From the NCBI GenBank assembly GCA_963827085.1, contig CAWGZY010000002.1, positions 261,889 through 325,888 of the forward strand: 64,000 bases of DNA, written 5' to 3'. The position numbers were made by a program, and so were the translations under genes. Under the pieces are notes generated by a model. That model had not been told where the DNA came from, ran no database searches, and was given only the letters and a program-made list of their open reading frames with translations. Numbering within the stretch: the first letter of the stretch is position 1; each line of letters opens with the position of its first letter. Source of the DNA: an uncultured Bacteroidota bacterium (lineage in GTDB: Bacteria > Bacteroidota > Ignavibacteria > UBA10030 > UBA8401). Shown piece by piece: positions 39,845-49,012 of the stretch.

Positions 39845-40204
39845 TCATCCAGACGACCTCTGCGCGTCATTATTCTTAATGACCGCGTATTTCTCAAGTA
39901 CTGTGATCAAATCATGAACAGGTTTGCTGCCGCTTCCTACGATAATGCCGCTCAATAAAACACTAAGGTACGGATGTCGAACCGAAGCCGTTAGCATTTG
40001 GACAAAATTTACAGAAAATACAGAACATACGGCGATACCGAACGCTGATGCAAGAATCCAGAGCCAAATGGTGCGATGCCGTTTTATTGAAGGGTCAGTT
40101 GAATCTGGGTCCCCCAAAATTTTGAATTCGCTTAGCAATTCCACAATTCGCTCAACTGCTTGCGCTAAGACGTAAAGTAATGCCAACACCGGGCTGTTAA
40201 GCAT
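39845..40204 (-). CDS. Hypothetical small membrane protein (low-GC segment)
   Basis: 119-aa ORF with two predicted TM helices and no recognisable family. Confidence 0.35.
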   Translation of the reverse strand: MLNSPVLALLYVLAQAVERIVELLSEFKILGDPDSTDPSIKRHRTIWLWILASAFGIAVCSVFSVNFVQMLTASVRHPYLSVLLSGIIVGSGSKPVHDLITVLEKYAVIKNNDAQRSSG

Positions 40205-40319
40205 ACTACCTCCTTATGGACTTATTACATCATGTTCATGTGTTGTTGTATCTATGAGTGTTTTCGTTCTCAATGTTCGTCGAGCTAGTGCTGTTTCCGA
40301 TATTAAATCTTGTATTAGA

Positions 40320-40399
40320 ACCGCAAAGGACGCTAAGATCGCAAAGAAGTTTTTGTAGAAAAAACTACAAAAATCCTCGCGTCCTTAGCGACCTTTGCG
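40320..40399. repeat. 80-nt hairpin of family 4 (arms ccgcaaaggacgctaag / cttagcgacctttgcgg) with a nested palindromic loop tttttgtagaaaaaactacaaaaa
   Basis: Read directly. The core gcaaag..cgctaaga is shared with 3004-3058. Confidence 0.65.
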
Positions 40400-40445
40400 G
40401 TGAATTAGTAATAGGAAAACACAATATTTGTTTTGAGAAACAGCA

Positions 40446-40841
40446 TTAGTATCTGATTTCGTTCAATTCTCTTTGCGAGACTTTTCTTAAAAATTCAACC
40501 AGCTCGTTGTCTCCTATTATTTTCCCATCGTACATTCTCTTTCCATCTTCCAATAACGCTTTAATTTGAAAATTCAAATTTGATCTCTCCCTAAATTTAT
40601 ATATTGAGTTTATTACCGTAAGAACCATTGAAAGAAGCGAAGACCATATAATCAATGAGTCAAACGTATTTTGAATGTCAAGAGCGTAGTGTTGTTTGAG
40701 GAGCAACATAGATGGTATCGCCAGAACTATCATGATGCTAATAGCTCCGCACCAATTCCCGACTAGTCTGTTCATTGTGCCCCGTTTGTGTTGAAAATCT
40801 ATTTTTCTTAATAAGTCTTCATACGTTGGATTAATTTCCAT
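40446..40841 (-). CDS. Hypothetical membrane protein
   Basis: 131-aa ORF with two TM helices and low GC. Confidence 0.4.
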   Translation of the reverse strand: MEINPTYEDLLRKIDFQHKRGTMNRLVGNWCGAISIMIVLAIPSMLLLKQHYALDIQNTFDSLIIWSSLLSMVLTVINSIYKFRERSNLNFQIKALLEDGKRMYDGKIIGDNELVEFLRKVSQRELNEIRY

Positions 40842-41165
40842 AATAGCCCGTTAGCTTGATTTATTGTATCCTTGACGGCAATTCGTATTAAAACTCTTTC
40901 ACACTGATTTCTTCAATTGCCTTCACAGTGGTTTCCCCCGCCGATGATAACTGCGCGCTCAACCGACTTTTTTTCCGTCATACGTTTCATGTCATACCTT
41001 CAAACGAAGCCCCCTATTATATGTATCCTCCAAATAGGGCTGAATGAAGTTTCCTGTGCTATTTGCCGTGAACAAATTCTCCTTAAAATCGGGTGGTTTT
41101 CTGCATTCCCGTGCATTTTTCGCGAGAAGTTGATTGTCAATGATTCATGTTGCATATTCCGATAC

Positions 41166-41222
41166 AAAAAATGCCGCACGGAACGCGCTTGGTTGAGCTA
41201 TGCTCGCGTGCGGCATTTTTTA
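41166..41222. terminator. Bidirectional terminator-like hairpin (aaaaaatgccgcac ... gtgcggcatttttt)
   Basis: 14-bp arms with an A-run and a T-run on either side. Confidence 0.5.
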
Positions 41223-41246
41223 AGGACATGCGGCGACTCCCGCAGT

Positions 41247-41426
41247 TTAGCAGGCCCTCGGAGGTGGAGGGGAAGGGAGTGGAGGCTGCACCCCTCCATC
41301 TTCAACAAGTAGTCTCTGTGAGCTTGTTGCTGCGGTACTAGAAGTAACGGGAAATTTGTGGTTTGAGGCTGTCAATAAGATCAGTGCCACAACGGTTGTG
41401 ATGATAAAACGATCCAAGTTTCTCAT
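41247..41426 (-). CDS. 59-aa predicted membrane/secreted peptide with a Pro-rich C-terminus. Below the ORF-track length cut-off.
   Basis: MRNLDRFIITTVVALILLTASNHKFPVTSSTAATSSQRLLVEDGGVQPPLPSPPPPRAC. Strong aaggag RBS 8 nt upstream and the terminator hairpin just downstream. Confidence 0.3.
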   Translation of the reverse strand: MRNLDRFIITTVVALILLTASNHKFPVTSSTAATSSQRLLVEDGGVQPPLPSPPPPRAC

Positions 41427-41552
41427 GGCTAAATCTCCTTTTCTTGATGAGTTGAATTGTAGATGGTTAGTCCACCTACTTCATTGCTTATATACTCTTG
41501 CGGACCCAACCGTTGAAGTTTTAGCCGCACTGCACAACGCTTTTTCTAACTC

Positions 41553-44500
41553 ATGGAACCTACTGTGATTGGGTCCTCACATAGCAGCGTTATGCCTTCC
41601 TCCTACAGATATACACGACCAAGACCAACCAAGAATCTTCTTATCTCCTTTCTTTGTTCTCTCGTGTTCACAATCGGTGCGAGCGCCCAATCGGTCGGAT
41701 CGAAACTCACAGATGCTGATCAACTCGAAATACGCGCTTACGAATTCTTTGTATCCGCCTGTTATGACAGCTCCCTTGCTTGTTACGAGAAGGCAGAGAA
41801 CCTGTATGCCAATGTTGGCAACTGGGCAGAAGTTCTTGAGTGCCTCAACCGGGAAGCAGACGTGCTTGCAAGATTAGCGCAGTATGAAAAAGCAGTGATG
41901 TGTTTGGAAAAGGCAAGAGAGATCGCTGCTGACAAGCTCCCACCGGACGACCCAATACTAGGAACAACATATAGCCTTCTGGGGTATATCTACCACCACG
42001 AGCAGGCATACAGCGAGGCTGTTCGCTATCTCCAAGAAGGATTGAGAATCAGATTAAAGGCATATGGTCCGATGAATATTGAGGTCGGCCGCTCTTACTA
42101 CTTGCTTGCGACGACTTACAGAACAATGGGAAAATATGATGAAGCTCAATTAGCTATTACACAAGCCTTGGACTTAAGCGGAAAAGTGGGAAATCAAGAA
42201 GACATGGCAATGAATATGCTCGCATTGGCAAACATACTATCTGACAAAGGTGAGTACGCAGGTTCGATAAATATTGAGAGGATCATAGAAGACACTCTCG
42301 TCAAGGCTGGGAAAAAGTCGAGTGCTCTGCTCGCAACGTGCTATTTCTATCATGGGAGAGACCTCCTCCATGAGAACCAATACAAAAGCGCAGTTTCCTA
42401 TCTATCAAGATCACTTTCTCTTTTTACCGGACTCTATGGGGAGAATCATCCTGATGTTTCAGGGTGCTTAATGAAACTAGGCGAGGCCTATTCACTTCAG
42501 GGAGATTTTACGCAGGCACAGTCATATTTCACTAAAAGCCAAGAAGTCCTGCTCAAAATAAACGGCCCAAATCATTCCAGCATGGCAGAATTATACGCTT
42601 ATCTCAGCGACTTGTATTTGAGAAAACACGATTTGGATAGTGCGCTTTCCTTTGGACAGAAGTCAACGCAAATACAACGGATCTACTACGGGGGATCACA
42701 TATCTCTACAGCAAATAGTCTCGAGAAGCTTTCTCGTGTATTTGAACGAAAGGGTGATTATAACGCTGCACTCGCCACCCTGGACAGTTCTCTTGTGATA
42801 AAGCTGGCAATCAACCCCAGCTCCGTGGAGGTGGCCAGGCTATATTTGTCAATCGGGGTTGTTCATTCGAAATCAGACCGCGCAGACAAGGCGGATTTCT
42901 ATTTTCGGCTAGCTCGAGAGGTTTTTGATAGTTCGCATTCTACCGACACTACTTTTCTAGTATTACTGCAAAATTCTTACGGCGATATGTTTCTTAGAAA
43001 GAAAAACTTTCACTCGGCCCTCGATCACTATAAGGAAGCTGCATTACTCTTGCAGGGAGGATCGGGCGAAAGAATGTTCACCTCCTCCGTACGCAACGAG
43101 CTTTCAAGCTCGGACGAGCTCAGACTCCACTACTTGTTGTCGGCTTCAAGGGCGTACGAATCGCTTGACTCAGTTTCCGGCAACTTTCATTATCTCGATA
43201 GTGCCTATTGCGACCTTGAGAATGCGATGTCCATTCAAACAATGATTCGAAGGGGATACAAGGCAGAGGGATCGAAGATCTATTTTGACGAAGAATCCTA
43301 TGATGTCAACAAAAATGCTGTGGAGGACGCGTTGGCACTGTATTCCAAAACAAAGGATAAGAAGTATCTCCAGAAGGCATTCCAGTGTTCCGAAAAATCG
43401 AAAGCGAATCTCTTGTTTGATAAGATGATTCAGTCTGAAGCACTGCATTCTTCCGGAGCGCCCGATAGTATGCTGCAAAGAGAAGAACTTCTGAGGACCA
43501 ACATTGCAAGTTCAAATTATAAAGTGGGAGAGACAAATCTACAGAGCGACCCCAAAGGACAACATTCCGACTACTTTGCTAATCTTGTTGCCTATGACAG
43601 GTTAATGGATTCCCTCGAGAACTATTTTCCTAATTACTATGATCTGAAGTACCGGGTGGAAGAAATCGCGCTCCCTCCGATCCAAAAACGTCTTCCTTCC
43701 ACCTCTGTGATTCTTGAATACTTCTTTGCAAAAGACAGGCTTTGTATTTTCACCATATCGAAAGACAAATTTGATCTCACGGTCGTACGGAGAACGTCGG
43801 AGATCAAAGAAGCCGCGTTGGCCATGAGGAAATCTTTGAGGACCGTCGACAGGCGTGAATACTTAAAACAAGCTTCCGATCTCTACAGAATGATCGTGCA
43901 GCCGGTGGAGAAATTTTTAAAAGGAAAACAACTGATCGTAATCCCTGACGGAGAATTGTACTACATACCGTTTGAATCTCTTCTCACCGCGCCGCAGTCA
44001 AACGAGACTTTTTCTAATTATTCAAGTCTTCCGTTTCTTATTAAGACACACACAGTATCGTACGCTTATTCCACCTCCTTGTTCATGGAACGGCGGCTGA
44101 GTCCGCCGCACACCGAGAAGAGCTTTGTCGGTTTCGCTCCAGTGTTCGACGATTCCACAAACAAGAATCTTGGGGAAACATCAAAAAAGGATTTCGCGGA
44201 GCTTCGCTCATTTTCTTTAGATGGAAAAAAATACGGCGACTTGGAATATAGTCAGGAGGAGGTGGAGGATATTGCCGCGCTCTTTGAAAACAAGAATTTG
44301 AAATCGAAAATATTCTTACATGATGAGGCCAGTGAAAGCAACTTCAAACAGGCTGTTCATGATTACAGCTTCGTGCATATTGCCAGCCATGGATTTGCCG
44401 ACGAAATTCATCCGGATTTATCGGCGCTCTTATTTTCAGAAGCCGGCGGACATCAAACGAGAGAAGATGGAATTTTGAACGCAAGTGAGACGTATGACCT

Positions 44501-44807
44501 TAAATTGAACGCAGACCTTGTTGTTCTGAGCAGCTGTGAGAGCGGGATTGGAAGGCTCGTGAAGGGTGAAGGCCTGATGGCGATTACCAGAGGATTCTTT
44601 TATTCAGGCGCCAGAAATGTGCTTTTCTCGTTGTGGAAAATTTCAGATAAGAGTACCAGCAAACTCATGGTCGATTTTTATCGGTCTATTCTCGCCGGTG
44701 ATAGTTTCCCCCGAGCACTGCAGGAGACAAAGTTGAATGTGATCCGTAATAATCCGTACGACTTCCCCAGCGAATGGGCGGGATTTCTTCTCATTGCCTC
44801 GAATTAA
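41553..44807 (+). CDS. Secreted TPR-repeat protein with a C-terminal CHAT (caspase-like) protease domain
   Basis: Signal peptide (KNLLISFLCSLVFTIGASAQ), about 12 TPR-like repeats, and a CHAT His/Cys dyad (FVHIASHGF ... LVVLSSCESG). Confidence 0.85.
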   Translation: MEPTVIGSSHSSVMPSSYRYTRPRPTKNLLISFLCSLVFTIGASAQSVGSKLTDADQLEIRAYEFFVSACYDSSLACYEKAENLYANVGNWAEVLECLNREADVLARLAQYEKAVMCLEKAREIAADKLPPDDPILGTTYSLLGYIYHHEQAYSEAVRYLQEGLRIRLKAYGPMNIEVGRSYYLLATTYRTMGKYDEAQLAITQALDLSGKVGNQEDMAMNMLALANILSDKGEYAGSINIERIIEDTLVKAGKKSSALLATCYFYHGRDLLHENQYKSAVSYLSRSLSLFTGLYGENHPDVSGCLMKLGEAYSLQGDFTQAQSYFTKSQEVLLKINGPNHSSMAELYAYLSDLYLRKHDLDSALSFGQKSTQIQRIYYGGSHISTANSLEKLSRVFERKGDYNAALATLDSSLVIKLAINPSSVEVARLYLSIGVVHSKSDRADKADFYFRLAREVFDSSHSTDTTFLVLLQNSYGDMFLRKKNFHSALDHYKEAALLLQGGSGERMFTSSVRNELSSSDELRLHYLLSASRAYESLDSVSGNFHYLDSAYCDLENAMSIQTMIRRGYKAEGSKIYFDEESYDVNKNAVEDALALYSKTKDKKYLQKAFQCSEKSKANLLFDKMIQSEALHSSGAPDSMLQREELLRTNIASSNYKVGETNLQSDPKGQHSDYFANLVAYDRLMDSLENYFPNYYDLKYRVEEIALPPIQKRLPSTSVILEYFFAKDRLCIFTISKDKFDLTVVRRTSEIKEAALAMRKSLRTVDRREYLKQASDLYRMIVQPVEKFLKGKQLIVIPDGELYYIPFESLLTAPQSNETFSNYSSLPFLIKTHTVSYAYSTSLFMERRLSPPHTEKSFVGFAPVFDDSTNKNLGETSKKDFAELRSFSLDGKKYGDLEYSQEEVEDIAALFENKNLKSKIFLHDEASESNFKQAVHDYSFVHIASHGFADEIHPDLSALLFSEAGGHQTREDGILNASETYDLKLNADLVVLSSCESGIGRLVKGEGLMAITRGFFYSGARNVLFSLWKISDKSTSKLMVDFYRSILAGDSFPRALQETKLNVIRNNPYDFPSEWAGFLLIASN

Positions 44808-44814
44808 TCGGCTG

Positions 44815-45537
44815 CTATTCGACAAAAAACTTCCCGACATACAGAAGCTCGTCTGCCGTTTCCAGCCTCCAATAGTAAAGCCCCCGCTCCAAAGTTCCGG
44901 AGAACTGGTATCCATTTTCATTTGTCCGTGCAACAACGACTTCTTTCCCCTTGTTGTTGACTATTTTAAGAATAACTTTCTCCTCCTCACCACGGGCCCA
45001 TTTGAAAGTAACCTTGCCATGAATTCTCTCACCGAGAGTTGGGGACTCTACTTCAATGTCGTTTGATCGATAATGAACGCCGATCAGTCCCTCAAGCTCG
45101 GGCGATACGGCATAATTATCGGATAGGAGACCCTTGCCTGTCCCCTTTGACGAGCTATCAATCCCCGCGGTTAACGGAGGAATACTCTGTGTTGAACCTT
45201 CTATCTTGCTCCGGCCATGTCCCGGTAAACCTAGCCTAGTGATTCCGTAAAGTCCAAAACCGATGAGTACAACGGCCGCAATTCTATAGAAAATAGTACG
45301 ATTCAAATTTTCCAGCTTCTGCCTTGGCCCGAAAAAGAAAAGTCGTTTCTCAGGCTTCCCAACCTCTTCTTCAAGCAGCTGAAATAGCTCTTCTATATTG
45401 AGCTTGCACGCGGCACATTCTGAAACATGTTCCAGAACCGGTTCCGGGAGTTGTTCAAGTGTATTAAGCTTCAATGCATCAACATAGAGGGCTATGCCTT
45501 CCTCGTTCAGATGCAAGTTTTCGTCGAAAAGCTTCAT
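44815..45537 (-). CDS. Membrane-spanning anti-sigma factor (zinc-finger HxxxCxxC N-terminus, one TM, periplasmic C-terminal domain)
   Basis: LEHVSECAACK motif, TM IAAVVLIGFGLYGI, directly downstream of an ECF sigma gene. Confidence 0.55.
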   Translation of the reverse strand: MKLFDENLHLNEEGIALYVDALKLNTLEQLPEPVLEHVSECAACKLNIEELFQLLEEEVGKPEKRLFFFGPRQKLENLNRTIFYRIAAVVLIGFGLYGITRLGLPGHGRSKIEGSTQSIPPLTAGIDSSSKGTGKGLLSDNYAVSPELEGLIGVHYRSNDIEVESPTLGERIHGKVTFKWARGEEEKVILKIVNNKGKEVVVARTNENGYQFSGTLERGLYYWRLETADELLYVGKFFVE

Positions 45538-45586
45538 TAGCTCACCTAAGTCATATTATATGTACTTATATATCTTCAAACTATGC

Positions 45587-46333
45587 TTAAATGGAGAAAT
45601 ATTTTTCAGCCAATATTTTCAGGGTTTCTTTATCATAGGATGATTCGCTCTTGCTGCCATTCAGAAGCTGGATTATTTCGCGAACCCTCACCTCCGACCA
45701 ATTTCTTACTGCATCGACGGTGTTGCTTTTGCCTTCGTATTTATTCAGGAGAGGGGTAACAATCCGATAGACATCTTTTGACTCAATTTCATCATAGTGA
45801 GTCCCAAAATTACTTAAGAAAACGAGAATGTCCTCTTCAGAGCAAGTCGGAAAACAGGCTATTACATCTTCCTTGTTTATCCTCAGGCGAAAATAAAGCT
45901 TGACACACAGGATGACCTTTTCCCTTTTTTTGTGAAAATATTTGAATATCCTCTTTAGCCGCTCCAGGTCGATTTCTATCGCAAGGTTCCTGGTGGCGGT
46001 TTCTTCGATGATCGGATCCTCGACATTCAGGGGAATTACCCTGATTTCCCTCTTTTTTTTATCATAAATCTTTAAACAGGAGTTCCTAACGATGGCCGAA
46101 AAGTACGTTTTGAGCAGTGCCATGCCATTATATTGGTCGCGGATCCTTTCCGATTTGCCGAGCAAGTCCTCGTTAACAGCCTGGACGACATCCTCAAAAT
46201 CGGAGGGCGAGAACATTCTGCCGGCAATATATTTTTTAACGATTATTTGTATGATCTCTTGATACTTAATAATGAGCTCGCGAGGCTGCTCTCTAAGCAA
46301 CTTCACATCCTGCTGATTCCTATTACGAAACAT
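45587..46333 (-). CDS. ECF-type sigma-70 family sigma factor with a C-terminal extension
   Basis: Region-2-like ELIIKYQEIIQIIVKKYIAG...SDFEDVVQAVNEDLLGK...YFSAIVRNSCLKIYDKKKRE. Region-4-like segment ...KVILCVKLYFRLRINKEDVIA. Confidence 0.55.
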   Translation of the reverse strand: MFRNRNQQDVKLLREQPRELIIKYQEIIQIIVKKYIAGRMFSPSDFEDVVQAVNEDLLGKSERIRDQYNGMALLKTYFSAIVRNSCLKIYDKKKREIRVIPLNVEDPIIEETATRNLAIEIDLERLKRIFKYFHKKREKVILCVKLYFRLRINKEDVIACFPTCSEEDILVFLSNFGTHYDEIESKDVYRIVTPLLNKYEGKSNTVDAVRNWSEVRVREIIQLLNGSKSESSYDKETLKILAEKYFSI

Positions 46334-47126
46334 AGCTCTCCGGCGAAATACAAAACCAAGTTACTTCTTATTATGGAGTGTATCAAGTTTGCCGAAGTAT
46401 GTCCCGGTCTTTGAAACGGGAATCAATTCATCTTTTTCGATCGTTGGTGGAGCCCTTCCTGATGAAGGATCAATTAGTAGATAATGTTCCCATCACTGTG
46501 ACTCGTCAGCTAAGCGAAAACACCGACTCTTTTTTCTGCAACTTGATGGAGCAAGCAAAAGAAGACTGGTGTCTCCTCATCCTCGCGGCAATTCATTACA
46601 ATTTATGCCATTACTTCATGAGCAGCCGTGCATCATAAGATAAAAGAAGTGCCAGCGATGATCTGTTAAGGATTGGGTCGGAAACGCCGCACTCCTTTTC
46701 GTGCAGAAAATGCCCGAGCCTTCGGTCGCCTGAAAAAAGGCCGGCAATGCCTTTTTTTAGCCTGATTTCCTATTGTTCAATGCCGAATCACATCCTGTCG
46801 TTGAAACAGGATTAATCCTTTTTTCATCCTTTCGGGCTATTACTTTTCAATGCCATCATTAGTACAATTTTTCATGATTCCGGTGAAAAATTGCTGCGTC
46901 CTTTTTGGTCGCATCAAAACTGCGGCACTATTGTAATAATGGCTCATCAATGGAAAAAACGATTTCATTTTTCTCTTTTCATTATCCGAACTTTGTTCAT
47001 GGCTGATCTTCAAAGTTAAAAAAAAGTGCGAGGAAATAACCTAATTGAGATTGTGTATTAATTCTTCTTTGATTCAAAACTGACTTTTAAAAAAGCGTTT
47101 GCGAGGTTTTGCCCTTGAATATATTA

Positions 47127-48590
47127 ATGGTGTATCCGATGTACCCCGATACATTTTGGAGTTTCAAACATGCGTTAAAATTTGTATCGAAAAAAGCAAG
47201 CTTCCCTCCTTTGGGACTATTAACTGTTGCTGCATTGCTGCCGAGAGAATGGAACAAAAAACTTATCGATACGAACGTCAGGGATCTCGCCGATGAAGAC
47301 ATCCTGTGGGCGGATTATGTTTTTATCAGCGCCATGTCCATTCAGAGTGAATCGGCACATCAAATAATCGATCAATGTAAAAAACTGCATGCAAAAATCG
47401 TAGCCGGCGGACCGCTTTTTACGAGCAGCTCTGAATACTACGAACACATCGATTATCTCGTGCTTGATGAAGCCGAAATCACTCTCCCGCAATTTTTACA
47501 CGACCTGAGCGAGGGAAAAGCGAAACATCTATACACGACGGACGAATGGGCGAATATTACCACCACTCCGCTCCCTCTTTGGGATCTTATATCGAGTAAT
47601 GATTATACTTCAATGAATGTGCAGTACTCACGCGGCTGTCCCTTCGATTGCGATTTCTGCGATATTACCGTTCTCTACGGAAGAATACCCAGAACCAAAA
47701 CCCAACCGCAGGTGATGGCCGAATTGGACGCATTGTCCCGCAGCGGCTGGAGAGGTCCGGTTTTTTTTGTCGATGATAATTTTATCGGGAACAAAGGGAA
47801 ATTGAAAAAAGATATTCTCCCTGCAATTATTGAGTGGAACGAGAGAAACAATACTCCATTTTACTTTAGCACGGAAGTCTCAATCAATCTTGCCGACGAT
47901 GATACCCTGATGCAGCTTATGGTGAAAGCAGAATTTGAAGCCGTGTTCATCGGCATCGAGTCTCCGAACGAAGAGAGTCTGATCGAATGCAATAAGATCC
48001 AGAACAGAAACCGCGATCTGATTGCAAGTGTGAAAAAGATTCAACGCGCGGGTCTGGAAGTTCAAGGAGGGTTCATCGTCGGGTTTGATAACGATCCTCA
48101 TACAATCTTCGATACGCTGACAAACTTCATCCAGGAAAGCGGTATTGTAACGGCGATGGTCGGATTATTAAACGCACCGAGAGGAACGAAACTCCACAAA
48201 AGACTTCTTAACGAAGGAAGATTGTTAAACGATTTTACCGGAAACAATACCGATTTTTCTATGAACTTCGTTCCGCAGATGAATTCCCAGAAACTCATCG
48301 ATGGATATAAGACGATCCTGGACACTATCTATTCTCCCAAATACTATTATCAACGCGTCACTCTTTTTTTGAAAGATTTCAAACCGAAGAAGAAGGTGTT
48401 TCATCTTAATCCAAATTACATCCTCGCGCTGCTGCGATCGATGTTTAAACTAGGCGTAATAGGCGAAGAAAGAATTTATTACTGGAAGTTATTCCTGTGG
48501 TCGTTGTTTTGTAAACCCCAGCTTTTCTCGTTGGCAATATTGTATACGATTTACGGATTCCATTTCAGAAGGATCTCCACGAGTATTTAA
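47127..48590 (+). CDS. B12-binding radical SAM protein with a C-terminal DUF4070
   Basis: N-terminal B12-binding domain (KILMVYPMYPDTFWSF...), the CPFDCDFC CxxxCxxC cluster, and DUF4070-like ...LFCKPQLFS...YGFHFRR. ATG at 47127 preferred over TTG at 47109. Confidence 0.85.
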   Translation: MVYPMYPDTFWSFKHALKFVSKKASFPPLGLLTVAALLPREWNKKLIDTNVRDLADEDILWADYVFISAMSIQSESAHQIIDQCKKLHAKIVAGGPLFTSSSEYYEHIDYLVLDEAEITLPQFLHDLSEGKAKHLYTTDEWANITTTPLPLWDLISSNDYTSMNVQYSRGCPFDCDFCDITVLYGRIPRTKTQPQVMAELDALSRSGWRGPVFFVDDNFIGNKGKLKKDILPAIIEWNERNNTPFYFSTEVSINLADDDTLMQLMVKAEFEAVFIGIESPNEESLIECNKIQNRNRDLIASVKKIQRAGLEVQGGFIVGFDNDPHTIFDTLTNFIQESGIVTAMVGLLNAPRGTKLHKRLLNEGRLLNDFTGNNTDFSMNFVPQMNSQKLIDGYKTILDTIYSPKYYYQRVTLFLKDFKPKKKVFHLNPNYILALLRSMFKLGVIGEERIYYWKLFLWSLFCKPQLFSLAILYTIYGFHFRRISTSI

Positions 48591-48607
48591 CAATACGGTT
48601 AAACGTC

Positions 48608-49012
48608 ATGGATCCATCTTCTCAGCGCTACTCGGCTCTTATAATCGATGACTCCCCGCACATGCGAATCCTCATGTCAAAGCTGCTGCTCCGCAGCGGG
48701 TTCACGCTCGTCGACGTTGCCGTCAACGGTGCCGACGGACTGCAGCACTTCACCGCATCCAATCCCGATATTGTTTTTCTTGATGCAGTGATGCCCGAGA
48801 TCGACGGACTGGATGTATTGCGAAAAATTAAGTCCCTCAAACCCGACACCATCGTCGCCATGACGACCTCGCTGTCGGAAAAGGAAAAAGTATTGAGGTT
48901 CAAGGAAGCGGGAGCCGATTACTACCTGCTTAAACCATTTGAAGAGGGAAAATTCATGGAGACCCTGCAAAAAATGGTCGCGATTCTCGACCGACGTTCG
49001 AAAAAGGAATAA
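48608..49012 (+). CDS. Single-domain response regulator (CheY-like receiver)
   Basis: ALIIDDSPHMR...DIVFLDAVMPEIDG...YLLKPF. Confidence 0.85.
   Translation: MDPSSQRYSALIIDDSPHMRILMSKLLLRSGFTLVDVAVNGADGLQHFTASNPDIVFLDAVMPEIDGLDVLRKIKSLKPDTIVAMTTSLSEKEKVLRFKEAGADYYLLKPFEEGKFMETLQKMVAILDRRSKKE

Follow-up and report, generated by a model that had tools for sequence, protein, structure and literature searches.

We describe a four-gene module on a 64,000-nucleotide stretch of DNA from an uncultured Bacteroidota bacterium (contig CAWGZY010000002.1, positions 261,889 to 325,888; this whole stretch is hereafter the window), in which genes for a sigma-like protein and a putative single-pass anti-sigma factor converge with a gene for a tetratricopeptide repeat (TPR)-CHAT protease predicted to be exported, and the latter diverges from a gene for a 59-aa proline-rich peptide. 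The four genes form a conserved module and not a chance neighbourhood. Our preferred reading, to which we assign a probability of about 0.45, is that they make up a split version of the DdvA-DdvS system of Myxococcus xanthus, in which the TPR-CHAT protein would cut the linker of the anti-sigma factor as a site-1 protease acting in trans. A preliminary description made from the DNA alone had listed these parts essentially correctly: an ORF (open reading frame) listing of the window returned all four genes with the same coordinates.

Conservation of the locus is the broadest evidence for a functional unit. Genomic contexts were collected by exact-protein look-up, from one genome per species (11 loci, all in metagenome-assembled genomes, MAGs, of Bacteroidota or Ignavibacteriales) and from JGI metagenomes (10 loci), and additionally by re-scoring all ORFs of the loci with the window proteins. 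The order sigma, anti-sigma, convergent TPR-CHAT recurs in about 20 Bacteroidota/Ignavibacteriales loci, is kept from 94% down to about 40% identity of the sigma-like protein amid unrelated flanking genes, and was seen in every related locus long enough to display it, save for the most distant members (L016 and possibly L031). Wherever the DNA that follows the sigma gene is available, the next gene encodes a membrane protein with a motif of the zinc-associated anti-sigma (ZAS) type. The preliminary description had made its proposal depend on such a neighbourhood, and on this point it stands. In the window, the anti-sigma gene follows the sigma gene by 49 bp on the same strand, and its stop codon is separated from that of the convergent TPR-CHAT gene by 7 bp (44808-44814), the convergent layout that had been noted before. 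This gap measures 7-10 bp in the loci checked (e.g., L001, L003, L005 and L007), which leaves no room for a terminator and makes an overlap between the 3' ends of both transcripts probable.

The large protein had been proposed to carry a signal peptide and a C-terminal CHAT domain with a His/Cys dyad, and the sequence supports both claims. Its CHAT domain matches the Pfam model over residues 773-1081 with an E value of 1.1e-60 and 206 bits (cut-off 24), and TPR_12 matches six stretches (E 3.9e-50), besides many overlapping TPR models. Across 11 aligned orthologues, which share 30-80% identity with the window protein, H946 and C995 are invariant within the motifs HIA[ST]HG and LSSC[EQ]SG, so that the protein combines a match to the CHAT hidden Markov model (HMM) with both catalytic residues; judged from this alignment, proteolysis is under selection. 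When the CHAT domain alone was compared with all sequences of the Protein Data Bank (PDB), the sole match was chain 8ROT_B (E 0.0023), that is, DdvA in the DdvA-DdvS entry 8ROT of Myxococcus xanthus, with H946 and C995 of the window protein aligned to H862 and C907 of DdvA. The whole protein, or its profile, gave PDB results swamped by TPR proteins, and DdvA surfaced only with the isolated domain.

The N-terminus of the same protein reads as a basic n-region followed by a hydrophobic core ending in ASA and then Q. All 11 orthologues begin with a basic and then hydrophobic segment ending in xAQ, and Q46 is invariant. Substrates of Sec and signal peptidase I in Bacteroidetes follow a 'Q-rule', the pattern seen here as xA-Q (PMC5837995), and we therefore predict that the TPR-CHAT protein is exported to the periplasm. 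The true start is more likely the ATG at 41592 (M14) than the first ATG of the ORF, since the gene caller used the same start in the L001 orthologue.

The assignment of the 240-aa protein as a zinc anti-sigma factor rests on an invariant motif, a predicted three-helix domain and the position of its gene. In the ZAS arrangement a fourth ligand precedes H-x3-C-x2-C by about 28 residues, as in RsrA, whose zinc ligands are C11, H37, C41 and C44. In the window protein H9, H37, C41 and C44 form such a motif and are invariant in two alignments (24 and 27 homologues, 33-84% identity). An AlphaFold model built on 27 sequences places three helices at the N-terminus (residues 12-23, 32-40 and 42-58), with a predicted local distance difference test score (pLDDT) of 82-90 there and over residues 1-50; after them come a transmembrane helix in which A87 and A88 are invariant (24-homologue alignment), a disordered linker and a C-terminal eight-stranded beta-sandwich (residues 160-240, pLDDT 83-91) of immunoglobulin (Ig)-like type, while pLDDT stays below 50 over residues 59-137. 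Within the variable linker one position stands out: residue 127 is acidic (Asp or Glu) in all 24 homologues, with Ser or Thr right after it in 21 of them. This acidic island may be the site of cleavage. We infer both zinc binding and binding between the sigma and anti-sigma partners. The possibility that the C-terminal domain marks a cargo of the type IX secretion system (T9SS) was discarded, the similarity being sub-threshold and barely above that to generic Ig-like folds.

Its partner, the 248-aa protein, is a divergent relative of ECF (extracytoplasmic function) sigma factors in which region 2 is established by profile and predicted fold. Sigma70_r2 (PF04542) matches all 23 family members (best E 4.8e-8), with the window protein itself below threshold at 19.9 bits against 24. 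The general ECF model TIGR02937 aligns over residues 18-220 and scores 34.3 bits, under its curated cut-off of 42.9, and an hhalign comparison of the family with one canonical ECF sigma factor, from L005, aligned only region 2, with low probability. The AlphaFold model (pLDDT 83) comprises a sigma-2 domain at about residues 15-98, a low-confidence linker (97-115) and an atypical helical C-terminal domain (116-248), and Foldseek matches it to region 2 of sigmaE with a target TM-score of 0.67 and a probability of 1.0. The C-terminal part, about 130 residues, is conserved, helical and roughly twice the size of sigma-4; it is accompanied in the family by a conserved helix-turn-helix-like pattern, ...TPLLNKYEGKSNTVDAVRNW..., and by a weak alignment of residues 177-232 to sigma-28 region 4 (E 0.037). 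Among the marks of an ECF sigma factor, a sigma-2 domain and an adjacent cognate anti-sigma gene are found.

This protein is not an isolated oddity. An exhaustive HMM search returned 546 clusters at 50% identity with E <= 1e-3 and 464 with E <= 1e-10; among the 150 best clusters listed, most proteins are about 250 aa long and matched over nearly their full length. Most close homologues found in a first search carry no precomputed Pfam annotation, so that, by sequence, the family is a sigma subfamily of considerable size that lacks annotation and whose C-terminal domain is unusual.

The arrangement is reminiscent of DdvA-DdvS, where a single-pass zinc anti-sigma factor is fused to a periplasmic TPR-CHAT moiety (PMC11506125). 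Both systems combine a cytoplasmic zinc-motif three-helix domain, one membrane-spanning helix, a flexible linker and a TPR-CHAT part with a His/Cys dyad, these two in the periplasm (by prediction in the module), and an ECF-type sigma partner. The module differs from DdvA in that its TPR-CHAT part is a separate protein with a signal peptide, encoded on the opposite strand in all loci; in the small Ig-like periplasmic domain of the anti-sigma factor; and in the first zinc ligand, which is His (HHCC) where DdvA has Cys (CHCC). Further differences are a sigma-like protein that measures about 250 aa and has an atypical C-terminal domain, the phylum (Bacteroidota), the extra gene for a small Pro-rich peptide and the lack of a CBASS or CRISPR neighbourhood here. 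In terms of the DdvA architecture, the sequence thus points to a periplasmic TPR-CHAT, but a single ZAS-transmembrane-TPR-CHAT polypeptide is not present. DdvA-like fusions have been reported only in Myxococcota and in one Comamonas (PMC11506125). Another TPR-CHAT protease with a link to transcription is found in the type III-E Craspase, where Csx29 cleaves Csx30 and thereby relieves the inhibition of the ECF-type CASP-sigma (PMC10028731). The likeness lies in a TPR-CHAT protease that is genetically linked with a sigma factor and with an inhibitor binding it; unlike the protease described here, which would be exported, Craspase is an RNA-guided enzyme of the cytoplasm that is bound to Cas7-11, and PDB searches with the module proteins gave no sequence match to Csx29 or Csx30. 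The regulated intramembrane proteolysis of anti-sigma factors in RseA/DegS/RseP of E. coli and RsiW/PrsW/RasP of B. subtilis is established (summarised in PMC10028731 and PMC11506125). These systems likewise have a single-pass anti-sigma factor that a separately encoded site-1 protease clips before the site-2 step; here, unlike DegS or PrsW, the site-1 enzyme would be a CHAT cysteine protease with a TPR sensor of about 700 residues, not a serine protease or metalloprotease.

In our preferred reading, the module would be a self-contained extracytoplasmic signalling unit: a cytoplasmic ECF-like sigma factor would be held by the zinc-motif three-helix domain of the single-pass anti-sigma factor, and the TPR array would sense a protein or peptide cue in the periplasm. 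CHAT would then cut the disordered periplasmic linker, with acidic residue 127 as the candidate site, after which intramembrane (RseP-type) and then cytoplasmic proteolysis would free the sigma factor. The small proline-rich peptide, membrane-anchored or secreted, would be the fourth part. Sequences and models show the identity of the domains, the predicted topology, the conservation of the catalytic residues and the linkage of the genes; the cutting of the linker and its position, the cue that triggers it and the regulon are what we infer. For DdvA, it has been proposed that CHAT clips a flexible linker in trans as a site-1 protease and that RseP then follows (PMC11506125); a trans site-1 protease is favoured here as well because the same functional parts are present, divided between two proteins. 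The signal peptide with Q46 and the topology of the anti-sigma factor predict that protease and linker meet in the same periplasm, and the Ig-like domain and the tail of the peptide are predicted to share that compartment. Conserved linkage, the sigma-2 fold, the ZAS motif with its topology and the invariant dyad all support this reading, as do DdvA as the closest solved structure of the CHAT domain, the acidic island in the linker and, as a further precedent, Craspase. The preliminary description had suggested the anti-sigma factor or the peptide as the target of CHAT, a mechanism that is plausible and has a precedent, DdvA-DdvS, which it did not name.

Several results weigh against this reading. 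The TPR-CHAT gene is transcribed convergently and lies outside the sigma operon. At L016, where the sigma-like protein is 35% identical to that of the window, the sigma/ZAS pair occurs without CHAT and is followed by genes for a sirtuin and a primase, so that the pair can occur without CHAT; at L031 the ZAS-like ORF is short, and CHAT was not detected in the available DNA. With these exceptions, the sigma/anti-sigma pair is the core and the CHAT gene a very frequent but non-universal partner. Neither member of the pair is fully covered by known families. The region-4 models PF04545 and PF08281 match 0 of the 23 members of the sigma-like family, and a profile of its C-terminal domain (133 aa) has no sequence relative in the PDB, so that the sigma function of this protein is putative. 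Of the ECF-like assignment made in the preliminary description, region 2 is therefore upheld, in all members and in the predicted fold, whereas no HMM detects region 4, and the protein is a divergent relative, not a validated ECF member. For the zinc-finger anti-sigma factor, the motif, the predicted domain and the gene position agree with it, but the expected zf-HC2 family (PF13490) matches 0 of 27 members at E values up to 1, and neither the 240-aa protein nor any of the 27 homologues matches a Pfam or NCBIfam anti-sigma model. The anti-sigma profile likewise found no match in the PDB and no ZAS structure, and neither single-sequence nor profile searches of the PDB with the two proteins returned a meaningful match. 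No promoter motif was found in common between the region upstream of the sigma gene and the CHAT/peptide intergenic region. The precedent has limits of its own: CHAT autoproteolysis and the site-1 step of DdvA are still a hypothesis according to its authors, and unperturbed cells with mutations in the DdvA dyad show no phenotype (PMC11506125).

The fourth gene of the module, divergent from the TPR-CHAT gene across 126 bp, encodes a 59-aa peptide whose N-terminus, short and basic, leads into a hydrophobic segment that would be a signal or an anchor; its tail reads ...LLVED-GG-VQPPLPSPPPPRAC. It has no match in the protein database and is thus unannotated. The near-perfect ribosome-binding site ascribed to it is there in the window copy (AAGGAG, 7-8 nt before the ATG), as is a terminator of its own, a hairpin with a U-run (dG -41.5 kcal/mol, z -4.97; none of 200 shuffles folds as well) that a terminator scan recovered too and that is bidirectional in form. 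Positional homologues in the same orientation occur in six lineages (the window; L001, L006 and L019; L003 and L020; L007; L021; and L029). Each is 52-71 residues long and has a basic stretch at its N-terminus, which is short, then a hydrophobic segment, an acidic/Gly motif (VEDGG, VEDAG, TEDRG, VQDNG, ADGEG or AGDPN) and a proline-rich tail, and the ratio of nonsynonymous to synonymous change (pN/pS) is 0.41 between the window and L001. A block within the intergenic region is conserved across five lineages amid diverged non-coding DNA, and its pattern occurs once in the window. No exact 4+4 dyad common to four lineages was found in this region, a scan of it for the sigma-70 consensus stayed at background level, and the promoter searches of window and lineages allowed no assignment of a sigma-dependent promoter or regulon.

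Loci of clade B (sigma identity of 45% or less) are without the peptide ORF and have instead a highly conserved non-coding element of about 185 nt (nhmmer E 1e-17 to 1e-59), which is present in one copy per locus, precedes the TPR-CHAT start by about 400 bp and matches no Rfam family. On the strand towards CHAT it folds at -37.5 kcal/mol with 45 pairs, 11 of which show compensatory changes (-30.2 on the other strand), making it a candidate structured leader or small RNA. L006 and L014 are contigs of one MAG, CAYTOA01, which carries two paralogous modules with sigma-like proteins 81% and 42% identical to that of the window; a single organism can thus have both the clade A and the clade B version.

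The peptide could enter the picture in a way that extends the split-DdvA model without excluding it: as a CHAT substrate, cut at the conserved acidic-x-Gly site, or as a ligand of the TPR array through its Pro-rich tail, it would gate the protease towards the anti-sigma factor, possibly in an autoinducing loop. We regard this as rather unlikely. TPR domains commonly bind extended peptides, the peptide gene diverges from the CHAT gene across a conserved intergenic block, and six lineages keep a small ORF of the same design under a pN/pS of 0.41; yet clade B does without the peptide and has its non-coding element there, the peptide has no entry in protein databases, and cleavage by CHAT is not Asp-directed in separase or Craspase (PMC11506125). 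A more elaborate form, for which we see only slim chances, would be a peptide-gated, caspase-like cascade in the periplasm: CHAT would cut the peptide, or the TPRs bind it, the protease would then be directed at the acidic site of the anti-sigma linker, and the freed sigma factor, of a new class of ~250 aa, would drive the divergent peptide/CHAT promoter in a self-amplifying, quorum-like circuit.

Other explanations take the protease or the sigma factor out of the proposed pathway. TPR-CHAT may be a target of the sigma factor, or may bind the Ig-like domain of the anti-sigma factor as a co-sensor or protector, much as RseB protects RseA, with other envelope or foreign proteins as its real substrates. 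Its separate, convergent transcription unit and the CHAT-less pair at L016 suit such an output or partner role, as do the large TPR scaffold, apt for protein binding, and the well-folded, conserved periplasmic domain of the anti-sigma factor, a possible docking site. The invariant catalytic dyad, which indicates selection for proteolysis, and the tight linkage of the CHAT and anti-sigma genes, together with the DdvA fusion, argue instead for direct functional coupling, and we hold this explanation, too, to be unlikely. Still less probable is that the 248-aa protein is a regulator of sigma-2 fold that has lost recognition of the promoter -35 element, the module then controlling a process different from transcription initiation. 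The missing region-4 match, the C-terminal profile with nothing in the PDB and whole-protein HMM scores under curated cut-offs would fit this; against it, the TIGR02937 alignment reaches residue 220, a weak sigma-28 region-4 alignment lies in the C-terminal domain, the helix-turn-helix-like pattern is conserved, and a partner with the ZAS motif always follows.

Table 1. Coordinates of the module and of related elements (window positions unless a locus is named)
Feature	Position	Strand	Remarks
TPR-CHAT ORF	41553-44807	+	1084 aa from first ATG; 1071 aa from likely start at 41592
Putative Sec-type signal peptide, M14-A45	41592-41687	+	first mature residue Q46
CHAT caspase-like domain	43869-44795	+	Pfam CHAT, residues 773-1081
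Catalytic His946	44388-44390	+	within HIA[ST]HG (window HIASHG)
Catalytic Cys995	44535-44537	+	within LSSC[EQ]SG (window SSCESG)
Anti-sigma-like ORF	44815-45537	-	240 aa, single-pass membrane protein
ZAS-type motif H9 ... H37-x3-C41-x2-C44	45406-45513	-	predicted cytoplasmic three-helix domain
Predicted transmembrane helix, residues 79-101	45235-45303	-	AlphaFold model; conserved hydrophobic YRIAAV... segment
Predicted periplasmic disordered linker, residues 102-158	45064-45234	-	candidate site-1 cleavage region
Predicted periplasmic Ig-like beta-sandwich, residues 160-240	44818-45060	-	T9SS-CTD-like
Sigma-like ORF	45587-46333	-	248 aa, divergent ECF-like
Small peptide ORF	41247-41426	-	59 aa
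Intrinsic terminator 3' of peptide gene	41165-41222	-	A-run, GC-rich hairpin, U-run
Conserved intergenic block, peptide/CHAT	41462-41527	unassigned	presumed shared promoter or operator region
Clade B element	L009:12210-12391
Clade B element	L011:12209-12391
Clade B element	L008:12231-12414
Clade B element	L012:12349-12532
Clade B element	L015:12198-12379
Clade B element	L005:13208-13390
Clade B element	L025:10950-11130
Clade B element	L013:13463-13642
Clade B element	L010:5926-6085

Around the module, G+C is 0.43-0.45 across window positions 40001-48000 (about 8 kb), against 0.48-0.54 in the flanks, and horizontal acquisition may account for this low value. The segment spans a SLATT-like ORF, the module and a radical SAM gene. 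The first of these (40446-40841, - strand), downstream of the terminator of the peptide gene, encodes a 131-aa protein with two transmembrane segments and a weak SLATT_1 match below threshold (E 1.3e-4; 21.9 bits, cut-off 41); it has no PADLOC match and is not kept beside the module in other loci. On the other side, upstream of the sigma gene and divergent from it, lie genes for a radical SAM enzyme that is B12-binding and contains DUF4070 (493 aa, TTG start) and then for a stand-alone response regulator (47109-49012, + strand), a pair that is locus-specific and outside the conserved module. The neighbours in the window are kinases, a T2SSE ATPase, the radical SAM enzyme and dehydrogenases, and flanks vary between loci. 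A defence island, whose control from next door would be a trait of the DdvA type, was considered and dismissed, there being no PADLOC system match and no CRISPR array in the window, and the neighbours being genes of signalling or metabolism. A Craspase locus was likewise rejected: the 64 kb contain no tandem repeats and no cas genes, and the large neighbouring ORFs encode PAS hybrid kinases. The caspase, ECF and DUF1822 systems of Kaur et al. (PMC8195603) have a different architecture, with EACC2 and TRADD-N domains, and the main text of the ECF classification paper makes no mention of CHAT (PMC7826278).

A periplasmic TPR-CHAT as site-1 protease of an anti-sigma factor has so far been proposed for one system, DdvA, where protease and substrate are parts of one protein. 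In the split version described here, enzyme and substrate are separate polypeptides, so that the hypothesis becomes directly testable in trans on a 55-residue linker. Our findings carry the coupling of TPR-CHAT and anti-sigma factor in the periplasm, as predicted here, beyond Myxococcota to Bacteroidota. They also draw attention to a small protein without annotation, a candidate for the role of ligand or substrate, and they define a sigma subfamily, likewise unannotated, whose C-terminal domain is unusual and which comprises several hundred clusters at 50% identity (464 at E <= 1e-10).

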